A stretch of DNA of 64,000 bases from Candidatus Levyibacteriota bacterium (GCA_041906785.1 JAYRIM010000029.1:1149-65148); one strand, 5' to 3'; shown: positions 2,571 through 61,567, counted from the stretch's first letter. Translations and numbers: made by a program. Notes: generated from the letters alone by a model not told the origin.

Positions 2571-3842
2571 ATGGATCAAGATACTCAATCATCCTCCCCA
2601 ATGTCCCAGCAAATGCCTGTACAATCTTCTTCTCATAAATCACCTAAATTTGTCTTCATGTTTCTCATTATTATTTTAATTTGTTTGGGGCCTATTGTCG
2701 GTTTTTATCTCGGCAAGGGCTTTAGCAAACCTTCAGAAACGAAAAAAGATACTCCTCAGCCGACACCCACACAACAAATTACTCAATCAGTGTTTCCTAC
2801 AGTAGATCCTAACGAATTAAATAGTGGGGAGCAACGTGTTGAAATCTATGCACTCTCTAACCAAGCCTTACAAAAAACATTTGAATACTCGCTTCCTGGA
2901 AGTTCAATCTTTGGTGTTCTCAAGCCAAGCTTAGGTAAAGATAATAAATTATACTTTGCCGATAATTCGAGAATCTTACGCTATTCGTTTGATGCAAAAA
3001 ATGTAGAAAAAGTATATGAGCTTAGTAACCCAAATGAAGCGATTACTAAAATAGAAGCGTTATTCACACCGAATATGTATATCACGAAAGGTCCAAAAGA
3101 ATATGGTGAAAACTACGAATTCACTGTAGAAGAATTTAATCTTTTAACGAAAGCAAAGCGTGAATTTGGACCAATTCCCCCAGGAATTTACAGTAATACT
3201 GCATATATATATAAATATGGTAATTCAGATATTGTGTCTTCTTTTGGTGGCGATGGGTGTGGCGGAGGTGGACCAATCTATAAATATACAGGCAATCAAA
3301 AAACGGAAATCGTTACTATCGGATTTGGTTGTGCTGATGGGCCAGGGTATGTCGGAGTTCTTGAAGAAAAAGGGAGCTTACTGTTAGTGGATCGGAACGT
3401 AAATATGGAAACTGGAGACTTCCCTTCCGAAACACTTCTCACACTCTATGAATTACCATTGAATAATACGAATTCTAAAAATGAAATATTTAACTTTTCA
3501 TCGACACCAGTTGAAAAAGGACAATTGGTATTAAACAGTAATAAAAAAACAGTTGGCATTATTTCTTCTTCAGAAATATGGATTATAAATCTTCAATCAA
3601 AAGAAGTTATAAAGAAACTAACAGTAGCATCCTTTCCAAATCACCAATTGTTCTTAAACGGGAATATATTATATGGTATCGATTTTAATGATAAAAAGAT
3701 TATAATGCTTGATTTGGATACAGGAACACAAAAAGATATCGTTTGGGGAAATGTATTACCAGCTAATAGTGCTCCTATATTCCTTGGTACATCTAATAAT
3801 ACTCTTCTTCTTTACACAGTTATTTATAAACAGCAGAATTAA
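2571..3842 (+). CDS. Hypothetical N-terminally membrane-anchored protein
   Basis: 423 aa. It has a TM helix (FVFMFLIIILICLGPIVGFYLG), a PT-rich linker and an extracytoplasmic domain. No family was recognised. Confidence 0.5.
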   Translation: MDQDTQSSSPMSQQMPVQSSSHKSPKFVFMFLIIILICLGPIVGFYLGKGFSKPSETKKDTPQPTPTQQITQSVFPTVDPNELNSGEQRVEIYALSNQALQKTFEYSLPGSSIFGVLKPSLGKDNKLYFADNSRILRYSFDAKNVEKVYELSNPNEAITKIEALFTPNMYITKGPKEYGENYEFTVEEFNLLTKAKREFGPIPPGIYSNTAYIYKYGNSDIVSSFGGDGCGGGGPIYKYTGNQKTEIVTIGFGCADGPGYVGVLEEKGSLLLVDRNVNMETGDFPSETLLTLYELPLNNTNSKNEIFNFSSTPVEKGQLVLNSNKKTVGIISSSEIWIINLQSKEVIKKLTVASFPNHQLFLNGNILYGIDFNDKKIIMLDLDTGTQKDIVWGNVLPANSAPIFLGTSNNTLLLYTVIYKQQN

Positions 3843-4417
3843 ATAGGATCATCTTTTAATTTTAGTAGATAACCAATATATGTAACCCCAAGGTGTAACG
3901 CAAAAAAAAGTATAAATGCAAGAATATAAAAGGAGAGCGATAACCGGATATAAAAAAAGCTAAAAAATATTGCTCCCAGAATATAATCAATTTGGTCGAA
4001 CGGAAACCAGGCTTTTCCGGGTGCTCTACCGAGTTGCCGTTTAAAAAAACTTTTCACTGCATCCCCTACTAATGCGCCAAAACTGAGTAAAAAACCTAAG
4101 GCAATTGGGTGTGCTGGTAAGGCTGCAAAAAATTTTGGCGTAATCAAAGATTGAAGCACCGCAATAAGCATACCAACTAATGTACCTCCCACGAGTCCTC
4201 TCACAGTTTTATGCTCTCCAAAAATACGTATATCTCGAAATGTTTTATAAAAATCTAATGGATACGAATAAGTTTCTAAAAAGGAAATTTTTGCTATAAC
4301 AACAGGTATCATGTTTGCTATTCCAGCAGGAAGAAAAAACCAAAAAGTAAAAAAAATATCCTGAAACATAATATTTTTTCCAAAAAATTGCGCGACCCCG
4401 CTCAGCGGGGGAAGCAA
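3839..4417 (-). CDS. CTP-transferase family membrane protein (CDP-archaeol synthase CarS / DUF46-like, or a short CdsA-like cytidylyltransferase)
   Basis: 192 aa. It contains HKTVRGLVGG and GDAVKSFFKRQLG, matching the KTxEG and GDxxxSxxKR signatures. The first 16 codons lie in a GC-rich hairpin, so the true start is probably the internal Met (MFQDIFF) near 4369. Confidence 0.6.
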   Translation of the reverse strand: MLPPLSGVAQFFGKNIMFQDIFFTFWFFLPAGIANMIPVVIAKISFLETYSYPLDFYKTFRDIRIFGEHKTVRGLVGGTLVGMLIAVLQSLITPKFFAALPAHPIALGFLLSFGALVGDAVKSFFKRQLGRAPGKAWFPFDQIDYILGAIFFSFFYIRLSLSFYILAFILFFALHLGVTYIGYLLKLKDDPI

Positions 4418-5416: not shown

Positions 5417-5519
5417 TTTAAATTGTCTTATTATTATATTGCTATATTGTTACCTTCTCCCAAAAGGAGAAGGTTGTGATGAGGGAACAATATAAAAATA
5501 TAACAATATAACAATTGTT

Positions 5520-6774: not shown

Positions 6775-6863
6775 TAGTTTCGCTTTTGATACATTTGATA
6801 CTTTTTCTATTTTTCTTTCGTCTTGACATTTTAGCCTTCTAGTGAAATACTCAGCCTACAAAA

Positions 6864-7753: not shown

Positions 7754-7846
7754 GTTTCCAGTTTCTAATTTCGAATTTCCAATTAGTTACAAGTTTATGA
7801 ATTAATAAATTAATTGGAAAATGGAGATTCGAAATTGGAAATTTCT
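7754..7846. repeat. ~90-bp palindromic element, family C (TTTCCAATT / AATTGGAAA arms), copy 1
   Basis: gtttccagtttctaatttcgaatttccaattag...ctaattggaaaatggagattcgaaattggaaatttc. It is internally palindromic and about 75% identical to the copy at 15229-15316. Confidence 0.7.
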
Positions 7847-14065: not shown

Positions 14066-14107
14066 AACTCATAACTCATAACTCATAACTCATAACTCAT
14101 AACTAGC
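14066..14107. repeat. Heptamer tandem repeat, (AACTCAT)x5
   Basis: aactcataactcataactcataactcataactcataactagc, immediately after the stop codon of the preceding gene. Confidence 0.8.
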
Positions 14108-14765: not shown

Positions 14766-15236
14766 TCAGCCGGCTCTGTTGCGAACGGCAGGCGCCTTCC
14801 AAGCGGGGATGGCTGTGGAAGCCACAGCCCCGCAGCCGCGGGCAATAACGGTGTACACACCGTTTTGCCGCAGACCAGCGACGCTGATACTGACTCGGCT
14901 GCCATTCTGAGTCACCGCGTTTGCCGAACTCAAAACCGGCACGCTGATCGTGACAGCAGGTTTCTTACTCGGGCAATTGCTCACGGTGACGGTCACGGTG
15001 GCAGTTGTCTGCCCACGAGTGACTGCAATAGCGATGGTCACGTCATTGCCCGTCTCGCGGTCTGTCGCGACTTGGACGACCGATTCCTCGGAGATGATCT
15101 GGCTAGCGTGAGCGCTGCTAGCCTGTGTGAACAGCCCCACCAGCACCATGGCCAGCAGGGCGAGTTTATAAAATTGTCTCACTAGTACCCTCCTTGTGAT
15201 TGCGAACCCAGGCAAGAGAAAACGAAGAGTTTCCAA
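14766..15236 (-). CDS. Hypothetical secreted protein encoded in a GC-rich island
   Basis: A signal-peptide-like segment (LALLAMVLVGLFTQASSAHA|SQ) is present. Composition is GC-rich and no family was recognised. Confidence 0.4.
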   Translation of the reverse strand: METLRFLLPGFAITRRVLVRQFYKLALLAMVLVGLFTQASSAHASQIISEESVVQVATDRETGNDVTIAIAVTRGQTTATVTVTVSNCPSKKPAVTISVPVLSSANAVTQNGSRVSISVAGLRQNGVYTVIARGCGAVASTAIPAWKAPAVRNRAG

Positions 15237-15316
15237 TTTCGAATTGCCAATTTCCAGTTAATTTTTAATTAATGAATTCACCACTAATTGGAAACTGGAA
15301 AATTGAAATTCGCAAC
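15229..15316. repeat. ~90-bp palindromic element, family C, copy 2
   Basis: gtttccaatttcgaattgccaatttccagttaatttttaattaatgaattcaccactaattggaaactggaaaattgaaattcgcaac. Confidence 0.7.
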
Positions 15317-15579
15317 TGCCTAAAAGGCTCCTTTCTGGGTGCGCAATAGATTGTTAAAGTACCAAAAAATTGTTATATTGTTAAATTGTTTTTTTATTGT
15401 TTAATAATATAGCAATAGAACACTATAACAATAGTAGATAATGTCTTTATAACACAAATCGGAAGTATACCACAGAAAACATAATTTGTCTACTATAGGC
15501 CTTAACTGCGATACGCATATTGTGTAGCTCAAAACGCAATTAATCAACTTACTGATAACCGATAACTGACTACTGACAA

Positions 15580-17688
15580 CTATTTTGATGGTATTGTGAA
15601 GCAAAAAAGCGCACCTTGATCTTTCTCACTTTCTACCCATATTTTGCCTTTATGCCTTTTAATAATATCTGCTGATACATACAATCCTAATCCCAAGCCA
15701 GGGAATGTATCTTCTCTATTACCACTGACACGGAAAAACCGTTCGAAAATATGTTTTTGTAATTCTTTTGGTATGCCCACACCATAATCCCGCACACATA
15801 CTTTTGTTTCCTCGTCTGTCTGTATAACAGAAACATCGATTTTCTTTGCATCAGGAGAATATTTAATTGCGTTTGATAAGAGATTCATAAGAACCTGGCC
15901 GATTCGCTCTCTATCTCCAAACACTTTTCGTCTTGCATTTCCCTCAACTGAAATTCGATGTTTATCAGTCGTTCTCTGCATTTCTTCAATAGTTTCTTTC
16001 GTAAGGGAGTTGATATCAAATTGTTCAAATTTCATTGAAAGTCTTCCAGACTCAATTTTCGTTACATCAAGTAAATCCTTAATAAGATTAGTTAGCTTCG
16101 TAAGCTGTAGATCCATTTTCTTTAATTGTTCTGCTGTCTCTATATTCCCCTGTTTTTGAAACCTGCGGGTTAATACTTGTACATACGCTTTTAAGCTCGT
16201 TACTGGAGTTTTCAATTCATGACTCGCTATGCTGATGAAATCATCTTTCTGACGTTCAAGTTTTTTCCGTTCTGTAAGATTAATGACTAAACCGATTATT
16301 TGGCCTTTCTTTCCTTCTGTAAACGTTTTTCCGATTAGCACAGGAACTCTCGAACCATCTTTTCTAAGATATTCTTTCTCATACGGTGTATGAAAACCTT
16401 TTTTATGTAATTCTCGTAATTCCTCACGATATTGGTCGTGATATTCATGTGGAGTTATATTGGCAATAGTAATTTCCCGTTTGCGTAGGTCACGTTTCGT
16501 GAGTTTTACCATCTCTAAAAAAGCCTTATTCGCATTGGTAATAACACCATCTGCATCTGCAAAAAACACACCAATTATATTCGCATCGACTATACGTCTA
16601 AGTCGTGTTTCACTTTCCTGAAGTGCAACCTGAGAATTTGATAACTCCTCAGCAAGTTTTTCTGCTTTAACCCGAGCTACATACTGCCAGTGACTTAATC
16701 CGAACAATGCTAAGCTTGTAAAAATTCCTCCAGCTAAAAGAAACGGTACGAGACTTCTTTCAGTGGAATAAATAAAATAGCGTGTTTGAGCAAAATAAAG
16801 TGTCCAGGTCCTCCCAGCAATACTGAAATTGCGAACAACACTCTCCTTGGCAGGTGATTTATCAACATCTGCGTTAGTAAAAAGTAAAGCATTTCTATAT
16901 GGTTTCGTTCCATCGTAAATATACATGTCTGCATCTGATTGTGTATCATGACCGAAAATACTATAAAAAAAATCGTTGGCACGAAATGGTCCATAGACAT
17001 AGCCATATAATAATTCCTTTCTTTCAGTAATAGTACTCGGAGTTGTACCTCCAAAATATACAGGCATATAAATAAGAAACCCTGGCTGTTTATTAGTAGT
17101 TATTTCCTGCACAAGAGTAACGATACCCGAAATGGTTGGTTGACCAGTCTCCATGGCCTTTTGCATTGCGTCACGCCGTGTTCTTTCAGAATACATATCA
17201 AAACCTATAGCTTTCTTATTCCGATCATCAAATGGTTCTAAATACTTTATAACATGATAGACATCTCGCTCATCATCAGGATAAATAGTAAAATTTTCAT
17301 ACCCTTCTTCCTCCATCAACTCAATAAACTCTTGTTTTTTATCGCTAGAAAAACGCTCTGAGAAACCTATTCCTTGAATGCCGTTATACCGGCTACGAAG
17401 CTCTAAATGTGAAGCGAAACTATGAAACTCATTACGAGTAATATATTGTTGTGACGAGAACATTCCAGCCCCAGCTCGTAACATAGCAATATATGTATCT
17501 AACCGTTTATCAATCGCCTCAATTCTTCTTGTTACTATCCTATCGAAGTACAGTTTATCTTTACTGTCAGCAACACGATCGATATAGAATGCTGCTAAAA
17601 ATGTTGTTAATAAACCCAATATAAAAATCGATAGAGGAAATAATGGACGTGAACGGTAATGATGTGTATGAAACCTACGTAATCTCAT
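15580..17688 (-). CDS. Sensor histidine kinase (TM, large extracytoplasmic sensor, PAS, HisKA, HATPase_c)
   Basis: 702 aa. H-box SHELKTPVTSL, N-box NLLSNAIKYS, G1 DYGVGIP and G2 GLGLGL are all present. A PAS segment (IVDANIIGVFFADADGVITNANKAFLEM) is seen. The N-terminal TM helix is followed by a ~300-aa periplasmic region that may be CHASE-like. Confidence 0.85.
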   Translation of the reverse strand: MRLRRFHTHHYRSRPLFPLSIFILGLLTTFLAAFYIDRVADSKDKLYFDRIVTRRIEAIDKRLDTYIAMLRAGAGMFSSQQYITRNEFHSFASHLELRSRYNGIQGIGFSERFSSDKKQEFIELMEEEGYENFTIYPDDERDVYHVIKYLEPFDDRNKKAIGFDMYSERTRRDAMQKAMETGQPTISGIVTLVQEITTNKQPGFLIYMPVYFGGTTPSTITERKELLYGYVYGPFRANDFFYSIFGHDTQSDADMYIYDGTKPYRNALLFTNADVDKSPAKESVVRNFSIAGRTWTLYFAQTRYFIYSTERSLVPFLLAGGIFTSLALFGLSHWQYVARVKAEKLAEELSNSQVALQESETRLRRIVDANIIGVFFADADGVITNANKAFLEMVKLTKRDLRKREITIANITPHEYHDQYREELRELHKKGFHTPYEKEYLRKDGSRVPVLIGKTFTEGKKGQIIGLVINLTERKKLERQKDDFISIASHELKTPVTSLKAYVQVLTRRFQKQGNIETAEQLKKMDLQLTKLTNLIKDLLDVTKIESGRLSMKFEQFDINSLTKETIEEMQRTTDKHRISVEGNARRKVFGDRERIGQVLMNLLSNAIKYSPDAKKIDVSVIQTDEETKVCVRDYGVGIPKELQKHIFERFFRVSGNREDTFPGLGLGLYVSADIIKRHKGKIWVESEKDQGALFCFTIPSK

Positions 17689-19828: not shown

Positions 19829-19862
19829 CTGACTACCGACAACTGATAACTGACAACTGTAA
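19829..19862. repeat. Heptamer-periodic tract (TGACTAC CGACAAC TGATAAC TGACAAC)
   Basis: 7-nt periodic NGAYAAC units lie immediately upstream of the secE start codon. Confidence 0.6.
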
Positions 19863-20675: not shown

Positions 20676-20793
20676 TTAGTTAAAAGTTCAAAGTCAAAAG
20701 TGTAAAGTAAATAAGGAAACTACAAATGATTCCTTATATTACTTTTAATTTTTCATTTTTAACTTTTAATTTGACTGACTGAAAGGAAGGAAC

Positions 20794-22133: not shown

Positions 22134-22170
22134 AAGTTACAAGTTACAAGTTATAAGTTATAAGTAATGA
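22134..22170. repeat. Heptamer tandem repeat, (AAGTTAY)x4-5
   Basis: aagttacaagttacaagttataagttataagtaatga, directly after the rplA stop codon. Confidence 0.8.
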
Positions 22171-31055: not shown

Positions 31056-31613
31056 ATGTCCTTTTTTATGGATACAGCAACTAAAATTTCAGCAAACAAA
31101 AATAAAAAAGCTGCAATCATCAGCGAAGTAACCGCAAAGGTTAAAAAAGCAAAAGGATTCGTATTTACGAATTATCAAGGGCTAACCCATCATCAGCTTG
31201 AAGATCTTAAGCGAGGAATGAAAAAACTCGACGCTGAATATGTTGCTACTAAAAATACGTTACTCAAACGAGCCCTCCAAGAAGGAACTGATAGCTCACA
31301 ACTCATAACTGATAACTTTGATGGTCCTACAGCAACAGTATTTATGTATAAGGATGCAGTCGAACCGATTAAAGAATTGACGAAGTCAATAAAAGCATTA
31401 CAACTCCCGGTCATCAAATTCGGCATTATTGAAGGTAAAAGAGTTGATGCAGCCCAAATTGAAAGATTGGCTACCCTCCCGCCGCTGAATGTTCTCCGTG
31501 CACAACTTGTTGGTAACTTACAATCACCTATTGCAGGATTTCATAGAGCATTGCATTGGAATTTACAGAAACTTGTTTTAACATTGAGTGCAATTCAACA
31601 AAAGAAACAATAA
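31056..31613 (+). CDS. rplJ: 50S ribosomal protein L10
   Basis: 185 aa. KGFVFTNYQGLTHHQLEDLKRGMKK is L10-like, and the gene sits immediately upstream of rplL. Confidence 0.9.
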   Translation: MSFFMDTATKISANKNKKAAIISEVTAKVKKAKGFVFTNYQGLTHHQLEDLKRGMKKLDAEYVATKNTLLKRALQEGTDSSQLITDNFDGPTATVFMYKDAVEPIKELTKSIKALQLPVIKFGIIEGKRVDAAQIERLATLPPLNVLRAQLVGNLQSPIAGFHRALHWNLQKLVLTLSAIQQKKQ

Positions 31614-34656: not shown

Positions 34657-37476
34657 TTACTTTCTACCAAATCGTAACCAGGATCGCCAGCCACTAGACT
34701 TTACAGGTTCAGGCGGAGGTTGCTGACCTGCATCTGACGGCGATGATGTAGCCGGAGGTAATGGAGGAGGTGCATTCCGTAGAAATGAAGGTACATCTAA
34801 ATCAGAGGCTGTCGTAGCGGTGCCAGTTGTTGCTGGAGGTGTTGTGCTTGAAGAAGCAGGTCGCGGTGGAAATGTCGGAACATCTAAATCGTCTTCTGCA
34901 CCCCTAGGTGTAAAACGAACTGGAACACTACGACCTGCTGAAACCCCTGTTTCTTCCTCGTGACTTTCATCTACAGCCGAAGACACTGCTACAGGCTCTT
35001 CGACACTTGTCCTTCCTGCTCTTCTTGCATCCATAATGGCATCAAATCTACCAAGCAGTTCTTCTGTGACTCTTCCTTCTACTAGTCTTCTCAACTCTTC
35101 ATCAGGTATCTCCCGAGCCATATCTAACAAAGATTCGATATTCGTACTAACCATTTCAATATCATTATCACTTAAATCATTCACTCTCGAACTAACATCT
35201 CTCAACTCTACTCTTAATTCCTCCATTGCCTGTACAGGAAACTCGCCAACTCTCCGCTGTAATTCAGTAGTCACGCGAGATTGCGCTTGTGCAACCTGTG
35301 GGTTTTCATCAGGATTCCCAGTTAATGCAGCTCTAAATTCAGCCATCAGATCATCTGCCGAAAGATTCTGGAGTCTGTCGGTTTCTCGTGATTCAGTAAC
35401 ATGCTGCTCTAGTGTGTGTAATTCTTCTTTTAATAACGCAACTATCTCCGGCGAACCTCCTTGTGTCTCAAATTCTTCTATAGCTTGATTAAAATTTCCT
35501 ACGCCATATAAAAACCGTCTCTGGAAGGGACTTGAGTTTCGTTTGTGCATCTCTATTAATTGGGGTGCAGAAATGTTTAATGCATACATTAACATTCTTT
35601 TATCAAGTGACTCTTCTGCTTCTTCATACTCAGATAATGCAGTCCGTATGGCTGCTGCAGAATTTAGTTGACCCAATCTTTCTCGATATCTATTGACAAT
35701 GGGACCAAATGTAGGCTCCATAATTCTCATAGCAAATTCCGCTGCGTTCCTATTTCCAGACTCTTGTAATCCATAAATTCTAGAGAGAATACCTTGTGCT
35801 CCATTTTCTAATACTTGAGGATCTCTTCGAACCGCAGCATCAATATCCATCAACTCTCTATATGTGTTACTTGATATGCCTAATCCTGTTGCTACTTGAT
35901 CAATTGCCTCCATTACCGCAGCTGTTTGAGGATCATTAGCATTTTCAATTGGTCTATCCCAATTTTCAGCAACTGTTCTATGTAATGCTATTGCCTGATC
36001 AACAGTCATGCGAGGTTCATCCTCAGGCTCTATTTTCGCTCTAGCTAATTCGAGCTGCTCTTTTAGATATGCGAGTACTTCTTCTGACCTTCCTGGACGA
36101 GCCTCAAACTGCCGTATTTCCTCTTCAGCTTCCTGTAAATGCATTCGATAAGGATACAGCCCTTCCTGTGCATTAATCCTATTCAACGTAGCTAATCCAG
36201 GGGCAGCAACTCGTAATGCATGCATCATAGGTACAATATCATCAGGATCGAACTCCTCATTTTCTCTACCTCCCTCCCATACTAATCGATACGCGTTCCT
36301 CACTGCCTCAACTGTATTTAAGCTTCCTACTTGCGTCCTATATCGTCTTATAGGATCTGCAAATATTGGTTCTAGATTTCTAAACAGAAAATCTGTAGCT
36401 GTTGTATTCCCCCGCCCCTGATATCTTGCAAGTTGATCGAGAACAGTATCTTCACGTGAAAAACCTCCTTGTTGCTGAATAAGAACATCAAGTAATCCTC
36501 TATAATCGTCCTCATCAATGCCAGTAGATCTTGCTATTTCAGCAATGTCACGATCAAGTGCAGCTCGAAGGTTATTATCAGGAGTCTGTTGATATTGCGC
36601 AAATCGTATAAGTGTATCTACATGCAGTCTCGCAGCTTGACGCAGAGCTGCTTCACTCTCTTCATCTGTTCGTTGATCCCCCGTTTCGGTTCTATCGGTT
36701 GTTGGTTGTGCAATAACAGGCTCAGGACTCGCTGGAAGAGCTGCTCGCAGCGCTGCTTCATCTGGCAATGATGCTCTCACTGTAGAAACCAAATGTTCAA
36801 GAGCAGCTCTCGCTTGAGGATTTCTCACTCGTGCAGCTGCAGCAGTCAGTTCATCGAGTCTACTTACCAGTCTTGGAAGTGAAGCTAATGCCGTACGTGG
36901 ATCTGATGGTAATCTGAGAATATCTCCACGAACTCGTTCTAGATGTCCAGCCGGGAATCCTGTTTCTCGTTGGATATCTCGAACTACTGCCATCACTTCC
37001 TTTTGTGTAATTCCTTCAGTGGTTATTGCTGTCGTGTAGCGGGAATAAACACTTCCTGCATCTGCAGGATCACCACCTGGTATTCGTTCTGGTTCAGGTG
37101 CAGCAACTTCATCAACAACTTCTGGCTCAACTACACGAGCTTCTTCCACTGCAGTTTCTTCTCGAGCTGCCTCTTCTAATACTGGTTCTGTTCGAGTTGC
37201 AGCCTCTGCTTGTCGTCTTCTTTCAGCCAAAACTGCCGCTGGGTCGATAACTACCTCTGTGCCAAACCGCATTGTACTCCTCATAGGAGATACAGCTTCA
37301 GTATGCGTTGCAGCAACTTGTGGTCTTTCTTCTCCTGTCTCACCTCTTCGCTGTGACAATAAAGCGTTAGGATCGATAACTACCTCTGTACCAAAGGTTA
37401 CTCTTCCCGCCGCTGGCTTTACCACTTCTGATGATTTTCTTGTTTGGTCTTCTGACCCTCCTGTTTCACCCGCCAT
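34657..37476 (-). CDS. Large (939 aa) Glu/Arg/Ala-rich alpha-helical protein with N-terminal duplicated motifs and C-terminal FtsZ-CTP-like DLDVP(S/T)F motifs
   Basis: Long ORF with GC content above its neighbours. N-terminal repeats VTFGTEVVIDPNALLSQRR and MRFGTEVVIDPAAVLAERRR. Internal duplicated ~55-aa helical segments (DFLFRNLEPIFADPIRRYRTQVGSLNTVEAVRNAY and AAEFAMRIMEPTFGPIVNRYRERLGQLNSAAAIRTAL). C-terminal DLDVPTFPPR and DLDVPSFLRN, then a basic amphipathic tail WRSWLRFGRK. Confidence 0.6.
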   Translation of the reverse strand: MAGETGGSEDQTRKSSEVVKPAAGRVTFGTEVVIDPNALLSQRRGETGEERPQVAATHTEAVSPMRSTMRFGTEVVIDPAAVLAERRRQAEAATRTEPVLEEAAREETAVEEARVVEPEVVDEVAAPEPERIPGGDPADAGSVYSRYTTAITTEGITQKEVMAVVRDIQRETGFPAGHLERVRGDILRLPSDPRTALASLPRLVSRLDELTAAAARVRNPQARAALEHLVSTVRASLPDEAALRAALPASPEPVIAQPTTDRTETGDQRTDEESEAALRQAARLHVDTLIRFAQYQQTPDNNLRAALDRDIAEIARSTGIDEDDYRGLLDVLIQQQGGFSREDTVLDQLARYQGRGNTTATDFLFRNLEPIFADPIRRYRTQVGSLNTVEAVRNAYRLVWEGGRENEEFDPDDIVPMMHALRVAAPGLATLNRINAQEGLYPYRMHLQEAEEEIRQFEARPGRSEEVLAYLKEQLELARAKIEPEDEPRMTVDQAIALHRTVAENWDRPIENANDPQTAAVMEAIDQVATGLGISSNTYRELMDIDAAVRRDPQVLENGAQGILSRIYGLQESGNRNAAEFAMRIMEPTFGPIVNRYRERLGQLNSAAAIRTALSEYEEAEESLDKRMLMYALNISAPQLIEMHKRNSSPFQRRFLYGVGNFNQAIEEFETQGGSPEIVALLKEELHTLEQHVTESRETDRLQNLSADDLMAEFRAALTGNPDENPQVAQAQSRVTTELQRRVGEFPVQAMEELRVELRDVSSRVNDLSDNDIEMVSTNIESLLDMAREIPDEELRRLVEGRVTEELLGRFDAIMDARRAGRTSVEEPVAVSSAVDESHEEETGVSAGRSVPVRFTPRGAEDDLDVPTFPPRPASSSTTPPATTGTATTASDLDVPSFLRNAPPPLPPATSSPSDAGQQPPPEPVKSSGWRSWLRFGRK

Positions 37477-37591: not shown

Positions 37592-39136
37592 CTATTGTCC
37601 ATTTTCCCGCTTATTTTCTCGAGCAGCATTCATTGAGTTTTTTACGAAATCCTCAGCCCAGGTATATATATTCCGTTCTTCCATGAGTTCTACCATTTCG
37701 TTTGTCCGCCTGACTTTCTCACGCACACCCATTTCTAACCCTGTTTTAATACTGTCAGCAACCTGTTCAATATCATATGGGTTTACTATAAGTGCAGCGC
37801 CTAAATCGATAGCTGACCCAGCGAATTGTGAGAGAACAAGCATGCCTGGATCTTCTGAAAATGATTGTGCGATGACAAATTCTTTTGATACTAAATTCAT
37901 TCCATCATCAAGTGGTGTAACTACAGCTAATCTCGCTTTCTTATAGAGATTTAATACTTCTTCGCGAGTGAATGACTGATGAATAACCTGAATAGGCCGC
38001 CATGTCTCTGTCGCATATTTGTCATTTATTTGTTTTACTAATGCGTTTACATCTTCTTTTAATTGTTTATATGTAGGAATTTCGCTTCGAGATGGAGACA
38101 TAACACCTAAATACACAGCTCGCTCACGATACTGCGGATATTTTTCGAAAAACCGATCAATTGCAGACAGTCGTAAAGGTACTCCCTTCGTATAATCGAG
38201 CCTATCTACACCGAGAATCACTTTATAGTTTTGAAAGAAAAAATCCAATGGATCAGAAATCTTTTCTTTCTGTTCTTCATTCTGCTCACCTCGTAGCATA
38301 TCTTGAAGAACTCGAAGTAAGAAAGAATCTTCAAGAGGTGGCGCCACGATTCTTTTGATAACATCTACATCAATGCCAAGCGGTAAATTCCGGACTGTTG
38401 TTATCTTTTTATCAAAATGTACCTGCCGTTTCTCTTCATCAATACGCACTGCCAATTCACGTTGGACTGTATTTAGGAAATTTTTCGCTTGATAATCACG
38501 ATGGAATCCCAGAAAATCACACGATAAAAGGCTCCATAAAATATCTTTTTTTACTGGAAGGATTCGGAAAATCTCCCACGTCGGCCATGGAATATGCCAG
38601 AAAAATGCGACTATCGTATCTTTCGGTCTTCCTAAATACATCGGAACGAGTGAAAGCTGATAATCATGGATCCAAATAAATGTTTTTCCTGAAATTTCTT
38701 CTTTTATCGCCTGAGCGAATTTTTTATTAACTTCTTTATATCCTTCATACCATTCCTTACGGAATTGAGGTTTCTGGAATGCTATATGACAAAGAGGCCA
38801 GAGTGTCTGATTCGCGAAACCATTATAATATGCATGAATTTCTTCCTGAGAAAGGAAAATGCGCTTCATTGTATAATCGCCTTCGGTTCCTTTAATAGTG
38901 AGCTTCCCCTTCCTATCAACACCGATTTTATCTTCTTCTGTTCGCGCGCGTGCAATATATGTAGCTTTTGAGGCTTGAGCAAGGATATCAAAAGAGGAAG
39001 AAACACCCCCGGGGACGTTTTGCAAAACTATCTGATCGTTCTTGCGGATATTCATTTTCGTCTCGCCATCCGCAGCAATAATCGTCTTATAACCAAGACG
39101 ATCGAAATAATCACGCAAATCGTAAAAAGATGCCAT
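37592..39136 (-). CDS. otsA: Alpha,alpha-trehalose-phosphate synthase (GT20)
   Basis: 514 aa. IWIHDYQLSLVPMYL and FWHIPWPTWEIFRILP are hallmark OtsA motifs. Confidence 0.85.
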   Translation of the reverse strand: MASFYDLRDYFDRLGYKTIIAADGETKMNIRKNDQIVLQNVPGGVSSSFDILAQASKATYIARARTEEDKIGVDRKGKLTIKGTEGDYTMKRIFLSQEEIHAYYNGFANQTLWPLCHIAFQKPQFRKEWYEGYKEVNKKFAQAIKEEISGKTFIWIHDYQLSLVPMYLGRPKDTIVAFFWHIPWPTWEIFRILPVKKDILWSLLSCDFLGFHRDYQAKNFLNTVQRELAVRIDEEKRQVHFDKKITTVRNLPLGIDVDVIKRIVAPPLEDSFLLRVLQDMLRGEQNEEQKEKISDPLDFFFQNYKVILGVDRLDYTKGVPLRLSAIDRFFEKYPQYRERAVYLGVMSPSRSEIPTYKQLKEDVNALVKQINDKYATETWRPIQVIHQSFTREEVLNLYKKARLAVVTPLDDGMNLVSKEFVIAQSFSEDPGMLVLSQFAGSAIDLGAALIVNPYDIEQVADSIKTGLEMGVREKVRRTNEMVELMEERNIYTWAEDFVKNSMNAARENKRENGQ

Positions 39137-39244
39137 AGGTAAATCAGGCAGAAAAAAAGCTTATAAACTTGTCTAGATTCAGTTCATTATAGCATAGCCT
39201 TCTGCGCTAGAGTGTAAAAGAAGTGTAAAAGAACGTAAAGGTCA

Positions 39245-39320
39245 AAAGAGACAGAAGAGCCAGAGGGGCCAAAGGAAATTCTCTTTTGTCTCTTCTGTCT
39301 CCTTGGTCCCATTTGGCTCC
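39245..39320. repeat. Inverted-repeat element, family B (GAGCCAGAAGAGACA / TGTCTCTTCTGGCTC units), hairpin pair
   Basis: aaagagacagaagagccagaggggccaaagg ... tgtctcttctgtctccttggtcccatttggctcc. Confidence 0.6.
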
Positions 39321-39980
39321 TTAAGATAATTATCCACTTCATAGATACATCCTGATCGACTTATGAAAAGTGGAGGATGTCTAGTTGATCTATATGTATA
39401 GTACTATTTTTTAAAAAAAATTTGCAAACAGTGAGATTTTTAAACAAAGTAAAACAGCAGTAAGTATGTACGTTTCAAATTTATTATTTAAATGCCATAT
39501 TTATTATCCCTATATAACGTTATAATTACTCATACATGATCATGATAAGTACTCAGAGATATTCTCATACATTTCGAAGTTTTAATATACTTAAGGAAGA
39601 AATCCGTTTTCGTTGACGTCATGTAGTTCGATTTTTTCGATAAGCATACAGGAAACAGTAGAATATCCTTAAAACTTTTCATATAATTTATAAAAAAATA
39701 TCTTATCTTGACAGAAATTATTAAAAATCTTGACTTAGAACATATTAGTTGATCAATAACACTTCTTCGGGAATTATTGTGAAAACTTTTTTAAAAGAAG
39801 TGTTATTTTTTTGCATAAGAATTTTGAAAAAATTAATTTTTTTTAAGAAATTGAGCATTATAAACCTCAAAACTCAATGCTACATAAAGTCATCTTAGGA
39901 AAACAGCACTTCAAAAAATCATTGCGTGAAAATTTCTTTTTTCACAAAAGAAAGTGAGGGAAATGAAATTTTATTACCTT

Positions 39981-39995
39981 TGTCTCTTCTGGCTC
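39981..39995. repeat. Family B unit, forward orientation
   Basis: tgtctcttctggctc. Confidence 0.5.
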
Positions 39996-40326
39996 CTAGG
40001 TCTCCTTTGTCCCTAATCTCCCTCCTACTTTATAACTTTTGAATTTTTTTAAACATTGGCCTTAGAATGCCCTACAACGGCAGATAGTTTTAAAAGTGCT
40101 ATTTTTAGTCGTTATTTTTTCTAACTTTATATGACACTACAATAATAAATAATATTATCTTATATTTCTCAATTACTAAGCACTCCCAAGGGTTCCCTAT
40201 AGGGTATTGAAGAGCTTTGTGGAAAGTACAGCAGAGATGCGTAAGTTTAGGCTAGTTTCTCGTGAAAATTTGCCTATTGACATCTTCTTACAGGATTGTT
40301 ACTTTATAAGTCCATAGAAAAATAAT

Positions 40327-43131
40327 ATGAGTATTCCTGCCCTATACCAAATCGCCCATAAAAGTGTTCTTGATCTTTCTAAACAAGCAAATCCTTCAAA
40401 TGAGGAAGATCTAAAAGCCATGCTAGGCTGCGATAGCGCATTAACTGTTTTAAAACTCCTCAACGCTTATAAAAAGGAACCGTCTCCTGAGCTACTAGAT
40501 ATTTGTAATAAAAGACTTTCTCTTCTTATACGCCTTCAAGGAAACGAGGTAAATCTTAAAAGCGGAGAAGAACCTGGTAAATTTATTCGTTTTTTTGCAA
40601 AAGCTGAATCACTTCCCGAAAATAACCCATGGTTTATTTACAATGATGGATACACACGCATGTATGATTCAATTGATGCAACTCCCCTCACCTTAATTTC
40701 TATTTATAAGTACTGGCAAATAACAAGCGATAATGAATTTTTATTACAGAGCTTATCATCTGTCGAAAAAGCTCTAAACTGGATCATTACATATGGTGAT
40801 AAGGATAAAGATGCGCTGCTTGAACATGAATATCAGCCATATGCGAAAGATGAAGAAGCACTATACTCATGGACTGATGCACATAGATTACTTCTCGCCG
40901 AGAGTGAAACGACGAACTATCCTATTGCTCCTGTAGAAACGCAAGCGTTTGCTTGGCTTGCTCTTCGTCTCTGGTCAGACTTTTACCGTGACCACTACCC
41001 TACATTTGGTCATAAGATATACACGCATGCCGCACAGTTGAAACAACAATTTAATAAACTATTTTTACTGGAGGATCGAGGATATTGGTATACAGCCCAA
41101 GCACTTGACGGTAATAAAGAACAGATTAAACGAATTACTGCTAATCCCCTTTTCTGCCTGTGGGCCTCATATAAAGAAGATGGAAAACAAAAAGAAGCTA
41201 TTATAGAAGAAGAAATTATAGCAAGCATGGTCGAACGGGCATTCCTTCCGGATATGTTCGATGCAGATGCGGGTATAAGACTATTAAGTAGTGATACCGT
41301 TACTGGGAATCTCCGCTTCCATGGAACAAAAAGTTTCTGGCCAGTTGTAAATGGCTACATTATAGAAGGATTGGAAAAATATAAGTTTTGGAAACAAGCA
41401 TCTGCCCTAACTGAAGCATCGCTTAAACCTATTGCGCATTTCCAATCTCCAGTTGAAAGTTACATTAAATCTGAACATGGGTATGAATCAGTAGAATTAC
41501 CCACAAGTATTAAAGATCTTCATGTCGAGAAAGTGAATTCAGCAGCAGCTGTTTTAGATATGGTCACTATTCCCCGCTGGGCTCGAAAAGCTGTGGTTTA
41601 TCAAATATATCCTCGCAGTTTTAAGGATACCAATAAGGACGGTATCGGAGATCTCCAAGGAATCATAGAAAAATTAGATTATCTTCAGTATCTTGGAATT
41701 AATGCTATCTGGCTCTCCCCTATTTATAAATCCCCAATGGCAGATAATGGCTATGATATCGCGGATTATTGTGACATTGATCCTATTTTTGGTTCTCTGT
41801 CGGATTTCGATCGTTTGATTGAAGGTGCACATAAAAGAAATATAAAAGTCATGCTTGATTTCGTACCGAATCATACATCAAACCAACATCGCTGGTTTAA
41901 AGAATCCGCCTCGTCGAAAGTCAATCCAAAACGAGATTGGTATATCTGGAAAGATCCGAAGGAAGATGGATCAACGCCAAATAACTGGATTAGCGTTTCA
42001 GGAGGATCGGCCTGGCAGTTTGACCAAAACAGTGGCCAATATTATCTGCATAGCTTTCTCCCCGAACAGCCAGATTTAAATTGGAGAAACCCTGAAGTTG
42101 TGGAGGCTATGTGTAACGTCTTACGGTTCTGGATGGATAAAGGTGTTGATGGATTTCGAGTCGATGTCATTTATTATCTAATTAAAGATAATCGTTTCAT
42201 TGATGAACCACTGAACGAGAATTATAGACCTGGCACTGACCATCCGAATGAATATCTTAAACATATCTATAGTAAAGATCAACCTGAAACACTAGAAATA
42301 ATTAGAACGTTTTGTGATGTTCTTGATGAATACCCAAATAAGTTTATGGTAAGTGAAACGTATGTTGATATACCAGAAACAGTTCGTTTATATACAACGT
42401 CCGAAAAAGGGCTTCACGCGCCATTTAACTTCCATTTACTTTATCAACCCTGGGAAGCTGAAGCATATAAAAACGTTGTTGATACCTTCCAGTCATCTCT
42501 CAGAATGCAAGATCTCCCTGTGTATATACTTGGAAATCACGACCAGTCTCGAGTCGCGACACGCGTGGGCGGTCAGAAACAAGCCCGCATAGCTGCTATG
42601 ATGCAGCTAACCTTACCAGGAATGCCGTTTATTTATTACGGTGATGAAATCGGCATGGAAGACGTTAATATCCCTTTTGAAAAACGTGCGGATAAATTTG
42701 AAACCTGCCGGGATTTTGAGAGAACACCATTTCAATGGAATAGCAACAAATACGCTGGTTTTTCAGATGTTGAACCATGGCTGCCTACCCAAGAAGATTT
42801 TCAAATACAAAACGCAGAAAAGCAGCAAGAAGATCCTACATCAATGCTTTCTCTCTATAGATTCCTTATTCAATTCCGTAAAAACACGTCTGCTCTAACC
42901 CACGGAAAGTATCTACAATTGAATATAAAAAACGAACATATCTTCGCATATAAAAGAAAATATGGAAAATCGGAAGTCACAGTCATCCTTAACTATTCAG
43001 GTGAAGATCAAAATGTACATATAGATAATAAAAACCGAAAAGCCGTATGTTCTACGTACATGGATGAACGCGAGGCTAATCCTGAAGGCTATATAACACT
43101 TAGACCATTTGAAGGGATTATTCTTGTTTGA
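40327..43131 (+). CDS. Fusion glycosidase: N-terminal six-hairpin glycosidase-like domain (glycogen-debranching GDE_C-like) plus C-terminal GH13 alpha-glucosidase / trehalose-synthase-like domain
   Basis: 934 aa. The C-terminal half carries GH13 regions VYQIYPRSFKDTNKDGIGDL, DFVPNHTS, GFRVDVIYYL, VSETYVD and GNHDQSR. The N-terminal ~400 aa fit the (alpha/alpha)6 glycosidase pattern (ETQAFAWLALRLWSD). Confidence 0.8.
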   Translation: MSIPALYQIAHKSVLDLSKQANPSNEEDLKAMLGCDSALTVLKLLNAYKKEPSPELLDICNKRLSLLIRLQGNEVNLKSGEEPGKFIRFFAKAESLPENNPWFIYNDGYTRMYDSIDATPLTLISIYKYWQITSDNEFLLQSLSSVEKALNWIITYGDKDKDALLEHEYQPYAKDEEALYSWTDAHRLLLAESETTNYPIAPVETQAFAWLALRLWSDFYRDHYPTFGHKIYTHAAQLKQQFNKLFLLEDRGYWYTAQALDGNKEQIKRITANPLFCLWASYKEDGKQKEAIIEEEIIASMVERAFLPDMFDADAGIRLLSSDTVTGNLRFHGTKSFWPVVNGYIIEGLEKYKFWKQASALTEASLKPIAHFQSPVESYIKSEHGYESVELPTSIKDLHVEKVNSAAAVLDMVTIPRWARKAVVYQIYPRSFKDTNKDGIGDLQGIIEKLDYLQYLGINAIWLSPIYKSPMADNGYDIADYCDIDPIFGSLSDFDRLIEGAHKRNIKVMLDFVPNHTSNQHRWFKESASSKVNPKRDWYIWKDPKEDGSTPNNWISVSGGSAWQFDQNSGQYYLHSFLPEQPDLNWRNPEVVEAMCNVLRFWMDKGVDGFRVDVIYYLIKDNRFIDEPLNENYRPGTDHPNEYLKHIYSKDQPETLEIIRTFCDVLDEYPNKFMVSETYVDIPETVRLYTTSEKGLHAPFNFHLLYQPWEAEAYKNVVDTFQSSLRMQDLPVYILGNHDQSRVATRVGGQKQARIAAMMQLTLPGMPFIYYGDEIGMEDVNIPFEKRADKFETCRDFERTPFQWNSNKYAGFSDVEPWLPTQEDFQIQNAEKQQEDPTSMLSLYRFLIQFRKNTSALTHGKYLQLNIKNEHIFAYKRKYGKSEVTVILNYSGEDQNVHIDNKNRKAVCSTYMDEREANPEGYITLRPFEGIILV

Positions 43132-43132
43132 A

Positions 43133-43167
43133 GGGACAGAAGAGACAAACGAGCCAGAAGAGACAAA
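43133..43167. repeat. Family B inverted-repeat arm, reverse orientation, tandem units, flanking the four-helix-bundle gene
   Basis: gggacagaagagacaaacgagccagaagagacaaa. Confidence 0.6.
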
Positions 43168-43176
43168 TGTTAAAAA

Positions 43177-43542
43177 TTATTTCTTGAGACTTTTTATTAG
43201 CTGTGAAAGCAAATACCCAACCTCACTTCTTTTCCCTTCAATAACATCATATTGCTCATGAGTAAGAAATGATAAGTCAAGAGAAAGCTCAAATCCTGCC
43301 TCTAGCTCAGCAAGTGAACCATCTGCAGTATTCAGAAAATGTAAATAATCTTTTGTTGTATGTCTTCTGTATCCTTCCACTATCGTAAGCACTACTGATA
43401 CAGCTGCTCTTCGCAACTGACTTTTTAGCCCAAATTCCTCACTCTTAGGAAATTCTTCTGTAAATTTATAGACTAACAACACTAATTCACGAGCTCTTTG
43501 CCAAACAATCAATTTGTGATACCCTTTATTTTCTTTCTTCAT
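43177..43542 (-). CDS. Four-helix-bundle protein (TIGR02436 / '23S rRNA intervening-sequence protein' family)
   Basis: 121 aa. LIVWQRARELVLLVYKFTEEFPKSEEFGLKSQLRRAAVSV...GSLAELE is the typical family signature. Confidence 0.8.
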   Translation of the reverse strand: MKKENKGYHKLIVWQRARELVLLVYKFTEEFPKSEEFGLKSQLRRAAVSVVLTIVEGYRRHTTKDYLHFLNTADGSLAELEAGFELSLDLSFLTHEQYDVIEGKRSEVGYLLSQLIKSLKK

Positions 43543-43550
43543 AACCCATC

Positions 43551-43583
43551 TGTCTCTTTTGGCTCATTGGTCCCCTCTGGCTC
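43551..43583. repeat. Family B inverted-repeat arm, forward orientation, flanking the four-helix-bundle gene
   Basis: tgtctcttttggctcattggtcccctctggctc. It overlaps the 3' end of the GT4 gene. Confidence 0.6.
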
Positions 43584-44760
43584 TTAAAGTTTTGAAAAAC
43601 TTCTCATAATCATCAACCATCCTCTGTACACTGAACTTCGCCTCAATATATTTTCTTGTACTCTCACGCAATTTTTTATATTCTGCTGGAGACATAGAAT
43701 ATATTCGCTCAACTGCCTCTTTTATACCTTCTAAACCAGTTTTTTTTATAATCCACTCCCCTCTTTTATCAGACTCTGAAGGATTAACGAGAAATCCTGT
43801 TTCTCCATCCTTGATAATTTCCGGAATTGCTCCTTTTGCAAAGGCCACCACTGGAGTTCCGCAACTCATAGCTTCAAGAAGAACTAAACCAAACGGTTCC
43901 TCCCACTGAAGCGGAAACAGAAAAAGCTTTGCTTCGCCTAAAATGCTGTTTTTATCAATATGTTCGTCTATTGTTGTTCTACGAAATGATATGTTTTCAC
44001 TTATCAGCGGTTTTATATCTTTATGAAAGTACTCTTCTGTTGATTGTTCTATATACGTAACAATATTTAAATGTCGGTTCAAGTCATTCGCAACTTGGAT
44101 GGCTTCTTTCGCTCCTTTATTCATCCGATGATGAATTCTACTCATCCATACCATGTCATCACTACCTATTTCATTAAATTGTAATGGCGTGATATCTATA
44201 CCATGAGGAATAACAGTCTTCCTTTCTTCGTGGATAAAGGGTACTTCATTATATTGGAGTTTCGACGGAAAAACGAAAAACATATTGTCAGAAATTCCAA
44301 ATTGTTTTGCATAAAACTCAAGCGTAAAGCCTACTGGGAAATGTCCGATAATCACAACGGGCTTCTTAAAAAAACGTGTATTAAATGTAAAAGTAGGATA
44401 CATAGCGCTATCAATAATCAAATCGAATTCTTCTTCATGTTCTTTTATATCTAAAAAAGCACGCATAAAGGCAGTTGAAGCAAACTGTTCTTTTCTACCT
44501 CGAAATTCTAAGGGTTTTTCAGTAAAGTATGTGTTTGAGTAATACTCAGGAAGGGGAAAATCAAGGAGTGGGTGAAGTGTAATGTTTTCATGAATCTCTG
44601 AACCTGATAATGCATAAAGATCAACTTTATGACCACGGCGGGCTGCTTCGAGAACGAAATTGGCTGTCCAAACTTCTGTTCCTCCCTTGCTATCTTTCCG
44701 AGCTGGTTTATCTGGAAGTGTAACTATTGCTATTTTCATAGTTGTTCTTGGTGTTGTCAT
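43564..44760 (-). CDS. GT4-family glycosyltransferase (possibly trehalose / alpha-glucan related)
   Basis: 398 aa. EPFGLVLLEAMSCGTPVVAF is the GT4 E-x7-E region. Confidence 0.8.
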   Translation of the reverse strand: MTTPRTTMKIAIVTLPDKPARKDSKGGTEVWTANFVLEAARRGHKVDLYALSGSEIHENITLHPLLDFPLPEYYSNTYFTEKPLEFRGRKEQFASTAFMRAFLDIKEHEEEFDLIIDSAMYPTFTFNTRFFKKPVVIIGHFPVGFTLEFYAKQFGISDNMFFVFPSKLQYNEVPFIHEERKTVIPHGIDITPLQFNEIGSDDMVWMSRIHHRMNKGAKEAIQVANDLNRHLNIVTYIEQSTEEYFHKDIKPLISENISFRRTTIDEHIDKNSILGEAKLFLFPLQWEEPFGLVLLEAMSCGTPVVAFAKGAIPEIIKDGETGFLVNPSESDKRGEWIIKKTGLEGIKEAVERIYSMSPAEYKKLRESTRKYIEAKFSVQRMVDDYEKFFKTLRARGDQ

Positions 44761-60019: not shown

Positions 60020-60070
60020 CATAACCTTAACCAATAACTTACAACTCACAACCTACAACCCACAACTATT
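60020..60070. repeat. Heptamer-periodic tract (ATAACTT ACAACTC ACAACCT ACAACCC ACAACTA)
   Basis: 7-nt periodic ACAACNN units immediately downstream of the mreB stop. Confidence 0.6.
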
Positions 60071-61196: not shown

Positions 61197-61567
61197 TTTT
61201 AAATTTAAATAATTTAAACATTTAGATTTGATTAAAAATTTAAGATTAGAAATTAAAAATTAATACATCATACTATTATCAAACCATATCAAAAGTAGCT
61301 TTGGCTTTAGGATAATTTGATTATATACCCCTTCGCTCTCATATTACAAATTTATAATACCTAACATAGTTTTGATTTTTAGTAGTACCCTTTATAGCTA
61401 TAATAATTTCTCTTTTGAGAGCTTCGGTAGGTATATACAATTTATAAAAATCAAAACGACGTGGTATATCAATGTAATTCTATGTTGCAAGGGCGAAGAT
61501 AGAACAGATATAATAGCTATCAGTAGTCAGAATTCAGTACTCAGTTCTGAGAGGATTTGCTTTCTTA

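Follow-up and report, generated by a model that had tools for sequence, protein, structure and literature searches.

A four-helix-bundle gene enclosed by inverted nonamer arrays in Candidatus Levyibacteriota shares the build of rRNA intervening sequences

What is a gene of the 23S rRNA intervening sequence (IVS) protein family doing between two protein-coding genes, tightly enclosed by inverted copies of a short repeat that recurs some kilobases away with no gene inside? The question is raised by a stretch of 64,000 nucleotides of DNA from Candidatus Levyibacteriota bacterium (GCA_041906785.1 JAYRIM010000029.1:1149-65148), analyzed here as a whole and referred to as the window, in which no rRNA or any other Rfam family was found. 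The gene codes for a small protein of the S23p family, called here the four-helix-bundle (4HB) protein. An earlier note, made from the sequence alone, had proposed that a 15-nt unit flanks this gene in opposite orientations, that the same unit brackets an AT-rich region lacking an open reading frame (ORF), and that both places are copies of a small cassette with terminal inverted repeats, related to the selfish elements of rRNA genes. The answer that we favor, with moderate confidence, is an IVS-type cassette, in which the 4HB gene is flanked by two mutually inverted arrays, each of about four nonamers, whose pairing as an RNA stem would let the cassette be processed from host transcripts.

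The proposed repeat sites were all recovered. With two mismatches allowed, the 15-mer GAGCCAGAAGAGACA has six matches in the window against 0.06 expected by chance, none of 100 shuffled sequences reached six, and each match lies where the earlier note had placed it. That these sites belong to one family also stood, but the notion of a single 15-nt unit did not: by sequence inspection and by repeat finders, the 15-mer is a piece of tandem nonamer arrays with a period of 9 and about four units each. On its purine strand the unit reads GA(A/G)G(A/G)G(A/C)CA (GARGRGMCA), and five arrays of it are present in the window (Table 1). Two of them, arrays C and D, enclose the 121-aa gene as tightly as had been claimed; each is 42 nt long, and the two are 79% complementary and 377 nt apart.

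The cassette takes up the whole gap between two convergent genes, one for a GT4 glycosyltransferase and one for a GH13 protein, and its arms run into both of them. On the coding strand, the 5' arm (array D) ends 4 nt ahead of the 4HB start codon and doubles as the end of the upstream GT4 gene, contributing its final seven codons and its stop (43564-43566; C-terminus ...RARGDQ), and the 3' arm (array C) begins 7 nt past the 4HB stop and overlaps the TGA stop (43129-43131) of the convergent GH13 gene. Its start comes only 21 nt after the GT4 gene, which leaves no space for a separate promoter, and the 4HB gene must therefore be co-transcribed as a 3' extension of the GT4 operon. In predicted folds of the minus-strand RNA, the ORF in its entirety is closed off by a terminal stem of about 42 bp, at whose base the start codon lies; the minimum free energy and centroid structures agree in this, and the two arms folded alone reach -48.8 kcal/mol (z = -7.6).

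The family assignment of the protein is firm, with 114.9 bits against PF05635 (cutoff 33.8, E = 2.6e-33, profile positions 2-105 of 106) and 110.4 bits against TIGR02436, for which the curated cutoff is 24. Among solved structures it matches PDB 2GSC (XCC0516, five chains; E = 3.5e-19) and 2RLD (five chains; E = 1.1e-7), and, judged by these matches, it is homologous to pentameric four-helix bundles. A total of 511 homologs were found, mostly in Patescibacteria and on metagenome contigs. A match to PF22296 (bAvd; E = 3.2e-10) led to no identification as Avd, the accessory protein of diversity-generating retroelements (DGRs), given that the equivalog model NF033474 reaches 45 bits where 80 are required and that no reverse transcriptase stands among the neighbors. 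The eight neighboring genes checked, from 33.3 to 47.8 kb, code for sugar-metabolism enzymes, one Fic-domain protein and one protein of unknown kind, with neither a reverse transcriptase nor a transposase among them. The 4HB gene itself has no match to Y1_Tnp, so it is not a transposase gene of the RAYT type (tyrosine transposase associated with repetitive extragenic palindromic sequences, or REP). A role in anti-phage defense was also considered and discarded, with no PADLOC match.

The arrangement in the window turned out to be that of the family. We surveyed 80 loci from representative genomes, plus one metagenome locus, that hold relatives of the 4HB protein (39-79% identity) and come from Patescibacteria, Bacteroidota, Ignavibacteriota, Acidobacteriota and other taxa; statistics refer to the 76 loci with full flanks. 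The loci (L numbers below) were picked by similarity to the window protein and may represent PF05635 incompletely, the assignment of start codons was automatic, and the taxon labels of metagenome-assembled genomes may be wrong. Almost everywhere a short-period tandem array lies upstream of the gene and its reverse complement downstream, with a unit that varies by lineage. The complementarity between the cognate upstream and downstream flanks exceeded the 95th percentile of non-cognate pairs at 53 of the 76 loci (70%; median score 27.5 versus 14), whereas only 11 of 397 other genes of the same loci (2.8%) reached that score. The arms are inverted in 53 loci and direct in four. Upstream arrays are significantly periodic in 57 of the 76 loci, the period being 7 in 32 of them, 9 in 19 and 8 in five, and where both arms are periodic the period is identical in 32 out of 36. 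With Tandem Repeats Finder (TRF), 107 of the 152 flanks proved to contain arrays, most often of 4 copies (median 3.8).

Polarity and spacing are equally regular. In 49 of 53 cassettes it is the 5' arm whose coding strand is rich in purines (p = 1e-11); the 3' arm follows the stop codon at a median distance of 6 nt, and between the end of the 5' arm and the start codon the median distance is 23 nt. Neighboring cassettes of one genome each carry a private unit with its own complementary arm (L075, L052, L046, L035, L016). Array similarity correlates with protein similarity (r = 0.36; Mantel 0/500), and below 60% identity of the proteins the arrays are no longer recognizably alike. As a control served two Avd genes of phage DGRs that adjoin reverse transcriptases, and these had no arrays. 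Inverted short-period arrays are a hallmark of this gene family.

Cassette and arrays could be followed as a piece at one site of the Chryseobacterium group, between the stop of one gene and the start of a co-oriented thiolase-like gene, whose flanks are 80-91% identical between species and for which three states were found. L073 has a spacer of 29 nt without arrays; in L075 the site measures 434 nt and consists of a TTAGAWR array, the 4HB ORF and the complementary array, the arrays abutting the stop and start codons of the neighbors; and in L071 and L079 a RAYT-like Y1 transposase gene with REP palindromes occupies the site of the L075 cassette. From the empty and filled alleles it follows that the cassette and its arrays are gained or lost as a unit, and the site has the look of a hotspot for small elements flanked by hairpins. 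Between the filled L075 and the empty L073, no duplication of the target could be made out. The comparison of orthologous loci for presence or absence, as suggested in the earlier note, has thus been made in this group. For the cassette of the window, no empty orthologous site was found, as L001 is the only other copy of the locus and is 100% identical, and the adjoining GH13 fusion gene has no close ortholog. The presence and absence at an orthologous site and the bracketing at most surveyed loci support the part of the earlier claim that speaks of a cassette family with terminal inverted repeats; selfish mobility of the cassette is plausible. As a side observation, the RAYT-like gene codes for an IS200-like Y1 transposase of 154 aa with REP palindromes GGAGCTCCGTAGGAGCGACCTG, at 1115-1763 in L071, about 1165-1760 in L079 and about 1140-1720 in L082.

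Elsewhere there are signs of long residence. At seven Patescibacteria-type loci the order of a DUF87/TraG-like ATPase gene (63-78% identical), the 4HB cassette and tRNA-Ile(UAU), whose anticodon is a rare one, is conserved, with units as different as GAGACA, GAGTCA (period 8), GTAYCAC, GTATCAAA and CTACTT, and the inverted-array build is kept throughout; the two arms have changed together in place. Comparison of these sequences indicates that the architecture is constrained while the sequence turns over, and is evidence that the cassette has long resided at the tRNA-Ile(UAU) site. In three of these loci (L002, L004 and L005) the last pyrimidine unit, TTGTCT, stands 17 nt upstream of a TAnAAT box before the tRNA, and this unit could be the -35 element of the tRNA-Ile(UAU) promoter.

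Evidence from cultured organisms ties the cassette to the classical elements. By tblastn against plasmids, the 4HB gene was found in Nostoc, Anabaena, Calothrix, Geminocystis, Pseudanabaena and Azospirillum, again with arrays in the flanks, such as CAGGAGT in Nostoc punctiforme, GGTGACA / TGTCACC in Anabaena sp. 90 and AAGGGAA in Geminocystis. In plasmids pANA02 of Anabaena sp. 90 (L087) and pPg_01 of Pseudanabaena galeata (L086), the cassette lies between cas6 and cas4 of CRISPR-Cas operons. The match in Azospirillum lipoferum is located within a 23S rRNA gene, at the helix-45 position as judged by the flanking sequence, and consists of GAGGACG/GATGACA heptamers and their complement around the ORF. 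The classical rRNA IVS has the same build as the cassette of the window, and the link to rRNA intervening sequences drawn in the earlier note is supported by this genuine 23S rRNA IVS. In Coxiella, the IVS has a 28-bp terminal stem that RNase III cuts in vitro, RNA ends map within the stem, and three tandem GACAGAT heptamers precede the S23p ORF (PMC4990558). 4HB cassettes have also been described within rRNA genes of the candidate phyla radiation (bioRxiv 10.1101/2024.02.27.582315). In Xanthomonas campestris ATCC 33913, an array of four GGGAATC units (622956-622983) overlaps the start codon of XCC0516, 6 nt from bccP (PMC4692102, supplement); XCC0516 is the crystallized pentameric 4HB protein of PDB 2GSC, the top PDB match of the window protein, and the main text of the heptamer study has no mention of the 4HB family (PMC4692102).

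How could such a cassette be tolerated by its host? Fitted tightly between two convergent host genes, from stop codon to stop codon, the one in the window would be transcribed as the tail of the GT4 message, and its purine-rich 5' array would pair with the pyrimidine-rich 3' array into a duplex closing off the ORF. By analogy with the similarly built rRNA IVSs, the duplex would be a substrate of RNase III, whose cut would free the cassette RNA, spare the host transcript and control translation of the 4HB protein; operons and even rRNA could then tolerate the insertion. We infer the cleavage from experiments on rRNA IVSs, and the effect on translation and the mode of movement are put forward in the same spirit.

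Several results weigh against this account. About 30% of the 76 loci fall below the complementarity threshold, and in the Pseudanabaena cassette (L086) the arrays are long and in direct orientation, with AAAAGCT x17 upstream and AAAAGCC x10 downstream. The fold of the whole cassette is just modestly better than that of shuffled sequences (z = -2.3). Among arm mismatches, those compatible with G:U pairs on the sense strand (57) are not in excess of the A:C ones, which are so on the antisense strand (46; p = 0.32), and no strand-specific signal emerges; the data therefore do not establish selection for pairing of the sense RNA and are equally compatible with a role of the inverted arrays as DNA. 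Neither a clear target-site duplication nor a recombinase was found, which leaves mobility without a mechanism; outside the arms there is weak resemblance only, between GTTTGAA at 43123-43129 and GTTTTGAA at 43591-43598. Finally, RNA pairing alone does not account for arms made of tandem repeats rather than of any complementary sequence, and the arrays may have a role at the DNA level or in protein binding.

A second explanation starts from that last point and takes the arrays to be DNA or RNA recognition sites of the pentameric 4HB protein, each protein binding its own private unit, with ORF-less hairpins and solo arrays as targets or as non-autonomous derivatives resembling RAYT-REP pairs and REPINs, and with the pairing of arms as a by-product. 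It is possible, though we find it rather doubtful. The private unit of each cassette, even between neighbors in one genome, speaks for it, as do the mode of four units per array and the mismatch spectrum without sense-RNA bias. The correlation of array with protein similarity points the same way, but common descent of the cassette predicts such co-variation equally well. Avd, a homologous protein, is a nucleic acid binder. It has been described as an accessory protein of retroelements (PMC10053308), and in Xanthomonas campestris GGGAATC occurs in 186 arrays, one of which is the four-unit array over the XCC0516 start (PMC4692102). Around the surveyed cassettes, distant arrays carry the unit of the local cassette in 21 of 60 cases against 5% expected, clustered within a few kb, and the window is alike in this. 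Most arrays of the window, however, have other units and no cognate 4HB gene within 64 kb, periods of 7-9 nt do not fit the helical repeat, and the strict polarity of the arms and their placement in operons and rRNA suit a role at the RNA level at least as well.

Carried further, this explanation would make stand-alone 4HB proteins the trans-acting partners of 7-9-nt arrays in general, namely short tandemly repeated repetitive (STRR) sequences, GGGAATC, TAACTGA and those of the window, each protein recognizing the unit that brackets its own gene. We hold this wider claim to be unlikely. If true, it would describe a repeat/protein system like REP/RAYT built on a non-enzymatic pentameric nucleic acid binder, and would give partners to the arrays that litter the intergenic DNA of cyanobacteria, Xanthomonas, Beggiatoaceae, Bacteroidota and Patescibacteria, with the ORF-less forms as targets or non-autonomous copies.

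The abundance of arrays without a 4HB gene is the starting point of a third explanation, by which they are STRR-like host arrays that arose by replication slippage and serve as terminators, insulators or processing sites, and a small selfish 4HB ORF lands with preference, or survives, in the loops of hairpins that were there before it. The window holds at least a dozen other arrays of 7-9-nt units, hairpin pairs among them; 13 of 15 are intergenic and none adjoins the 4HB gene. Their units include AACTCAT x5.6 (perfect), the TAACTGA-like CTGACAA/CTGATAA, TTTCCAA, AACAATAT, AAGTTAC and TTTGATACA, three further inverted hairpin pairs start at 7755/7812, 15367/15402 and 20678/20743 (spans 7755-7843, 15367-15433 and 20678-20770), and almost all arrays stand at gene boundaries; one array hairpin separates nusG from rplK. 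Over the 507 kb of homolog loci we counted 149-175 arrays, about half of them within 120 nt of a 4HB gene, a zone that makes up 11% of the sequence, and the other half away from such genes. The link is one-way: 4HB genes usually come with arrays, and most arrays come without a 4HB gene. Heptamer arrays are also plentiful in the literature, with the 186 GGGAATC arrays of Xanthomonas, many in convergent pairs (PMC4692102), others in Nostoc, and TAACTGA in Beggiatoaceae, cyanobacteria and Bacteroidetes, all with no link drawn to the 4HB gene (PMC4692102, PMC4679880). This explanation is nevertheless improbable, in view of four observations. In rRNA the arrays belong to the insertion and not to the host helix; the empty Chryseobacterium allele of 29 nt has no arrays, whereas the filled one has arrays and ORF together; the arrays come within a few nt of the ORF, which leaves no separate mobile ORF unit; and array polarity is fixed relative to the gene. 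As for a chance arrangement of simple purine-rich sequence, the shortness and low complexity of the units in an AT-rich genome with many short repeats would allow it, but the excess of 15-mer matches, the complementarity of the 42-nt arms and the rate of bracketing over that of control genes refute it, and we give it practically no credence.

If the IVS-type cassette is the favored account of the 4HB gene, what is the gene-free region next to the otsA-like gene? Between 39137 and 40326 the longest ORF is not above 51 aa. The earlier note had seen here an empty or degenerate second copy of the cassette, and the empty copy is best seen in an 80-nt ORF-less hairpin together with a solo array, and not in the AT-rich stretch of 650 bp between them, in which there is no decayed trace of the gene: a six-frame hmmsearch with the family profile found the intact gene alone, with no 4HB remnant in 39320-39980 or elsewhere in the window. 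The hairpin, formed by arrays A-left and A-right, folds at -32.4 kcal/mol (z = -2.6), and Rfam returned for it generic hairpin-shaped miRNA models only, all sub-threshold. It is best read as a gene-free miniature counterpart of the cassette, comparable to ORF-less IVSs. The solo array, B, is a further arm of the same nonamer set as the cassette; over the initial 40 nt (39973-40012) its complementarity to array A-left, across 693 nt, is 78%, and the two pair at -44 kcal/mol (z = -6.6). For the AT-rich core, Rfam at a permissive threshold gave nothing near threshold, and promoter and terminator scans of 39000-43700 gave results not above chance; it probably serves as the promoter region from which the otsA-like and GH13 genes are transcribed divergently.

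Array B takes part in a second inverted pair. Together with array C it brackets the entire 2.8-kb GH13 gene on the GH13 sense strand, and B/C is the best-matched array pair of all, with 17 perfect base pairs and -52.7 kcal/mol (z = -11.1). In three surveyed loci (L012, L053 and L065) the gene adjoining the cassette is likewise bracketed by an array with the unit of the cassette. Directly left of the hairpin, between it and the otsA-like start, a perfect 11-nt direct repeat, AGTGTAAAAGA x2.1, occupies 39211-39233.

Table 1. Features of the window, with positions counted from its first nucleotide, and, in the last row, loci of the survey with their own coordinates
Feature	Position	Strand	Description
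4HB gene, 121 aa	43177-43542	minus	23S rRNA IVS protein / S23p family
5' arm of cassette (array D)	43547-43588	minus	four nonamers GAGCCA GAGGGGACC AATGAGCCA AAAGAGACA, purine-rich on coding strand; pyrimidine strand on +
3' arm of cassette (array C)	43128-43169	minus	four nonamers, pyrimidine-rich on coding strand; purine strand on +; TRF period 9, 4.0 copies
Array A-left	39240-39279		purine strand on +
Array A-right	39281-39320		pyrimidine strand on +
Array B (solo)	39973-40020		pyrimidine strand on +
15-mer match positions	39248, 39287, 39981, 43133, 43151, 43551		
ORF-less hairpin, 80 nt	39240-39320		nonamer-built, purine array then directly pyrimidine array; about 105 nt upstream of otsA-like start
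AT-rich non-coding core	39321-39972		25.6% G+C versus 38.2% in the whole window
Other arrays of the window (I)	5486-5515, 6785-6805, 7755-7843, 14066-14104, 15230-15256, 15367-15433, 15551-15581		
Other arrays of the window (II)	19829-19859, 20678-20772, 22134-22165, 31286-31317, 60036-60067, 61231-61263		
ATPase / cassette / tRNA-Ile(UAU) loci	L002 (3001-3524), L004, L005, L008, L023, L024, L039		cassette near 3001-3370, tRNA near 3410-3560

The genes around the cassette have features of their own. The convergent GH13 gene (40327-43131) codes for a 934-aa fusion of an N-terminal amylo-alpha-1,6-glucosidase-like part (weak GDE_C match) with a complete GH13 alpha-amylase domain; no full-length homolog of it was found, the best other matches spanning the C-terminal 55% only, at 63% identity. 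It belongs to a trehalose/glucan cluster with otsA-like, trehalose-phosphatase-like, GT4 and second GH13 genes. On the minus strand at 34657-37476 lies an ORF of 939 aa without any Pfam or NCBIfam match. Among the surveyed loci, nine (L040, L046, L049, L052, L054, L055, L060, L066 and L078) have a conserved GGGGG(A) run that follows the 5' array and precedes the 4HB start codon by 10-25 nt, and which resembles a Shine-Dalgarno sequence; these are cassettes of Bacteroidota, Ignavibacteriota and Acidobacteriota, phyla not known to use Shine-Dalgarno sequences often, and so strong a motif is unexpected there. A Saccharibacteria locus that also has a 4HB cassette (L037) holds, at 4088-4336, an 82-aa GIY-YIG nuclease gene within a GC-rich inverted repeat, GGGACCCCTCACCCTTTGG / CCAAAGGGTGAGGGGG.

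The function of the 4HB proteins encoded by IVSs has been a question since the 1990s, and that of short heptamer arrays is a question likewise. Across several phyla the two are physically coupled, with the classical rRNA IVS as a special case of the module, and the cassette account explains why rRNA, cas operons and tight operon spacers are not destroyed by the 4HB genes that they contain. The general rule, that stand-alone 4HB genes are bracketed by inverted 7-9-nt arrays of a private unit and that the rRNA IVS is one case of this, was not found in the literature searched, the coverage of which was incomplete, so that a prior description is possible.

Among known systems, MITEs (transposable elements of the miniature inverted-repeat type) and other elements with terminal inverted repeats resemble the cassette in those repeats, in their small gene-free hairpin derivatives, in their intergenic position and in their presence/absence polymorphism. 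Unlike them, it has no transposase gene among the eight neighbors checked, no clear target-site duplication was seen, and its arms are tandem and private to each copy instead of being shared across copies; for comparison with MITE copy numbers, five arrays of the same unit are present in the 64 kb of the window. Avd of DGRs has a four-helix-bundle fold homologous to that of the window protein, but has a reverse transcriptase as neighbor and, in the two phage cases, no arrays. STRR-like arrays (GGGAATC of Xanthomonas, GGGGA(C/T)T of Nostoc, TAACTGA of Beggiatoaceae and cyanobacteria) are intergenic 7-nt units in two to six or more copies, often convergent and often just upstream of start codons, and TAACTGA-like and other heptamer arrays occur in the window as well. 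The arrays of its cassette, intergenic and in inverted pairs of about four copies, are similar, but they have a period of 9 and not 7, and they enclose a gene, whereas most STRR-like arrays have none between them.

REP/RAYT systems come nearer, as a small gene flanked by inverted short repeats, with the repeat dispersed also as gene-free inverted intergenic doublets, and the two kinds of element share one Chryseobacterium intergenic site in different species. The 4HB cassette differs in having no Y1/HUH transposase fold and no known transposition activity, and in its tandem 7-9-nt arrays in place of imperfect palindromes. With the 23S rRNA IVSs that carry an S23p ORF in Leptospira, Coxiella burnetii, Xanthomonas, Brucella and Azospirillum, the window cassette shares the protein family, the size of about 0.45 kb, complementary ends that form a long stem around the ORF, and ORF-less hairpin forms alongside the ORF-bearing ones. 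The arm units have a GACA-type core in common, GACAGAT in Coxiella, GAGGACA/GATGACA in Azospirillum and GAAGAGACA in the window, those of the two IVSs being heptamers and those of the window nonamers. RNase III excision has been shown for rRNA IVSs (PMC4990558) and would, by analogy, apply to the cassette of the window, which lies between the protein genes for GT4 and GH13 and not in helix 25 or 45 of 23S rRNA. The cassette is nothing unusual within its class, which is very large; it stands outside rRNA and nevertheless shares the build of the rRNA IVS.

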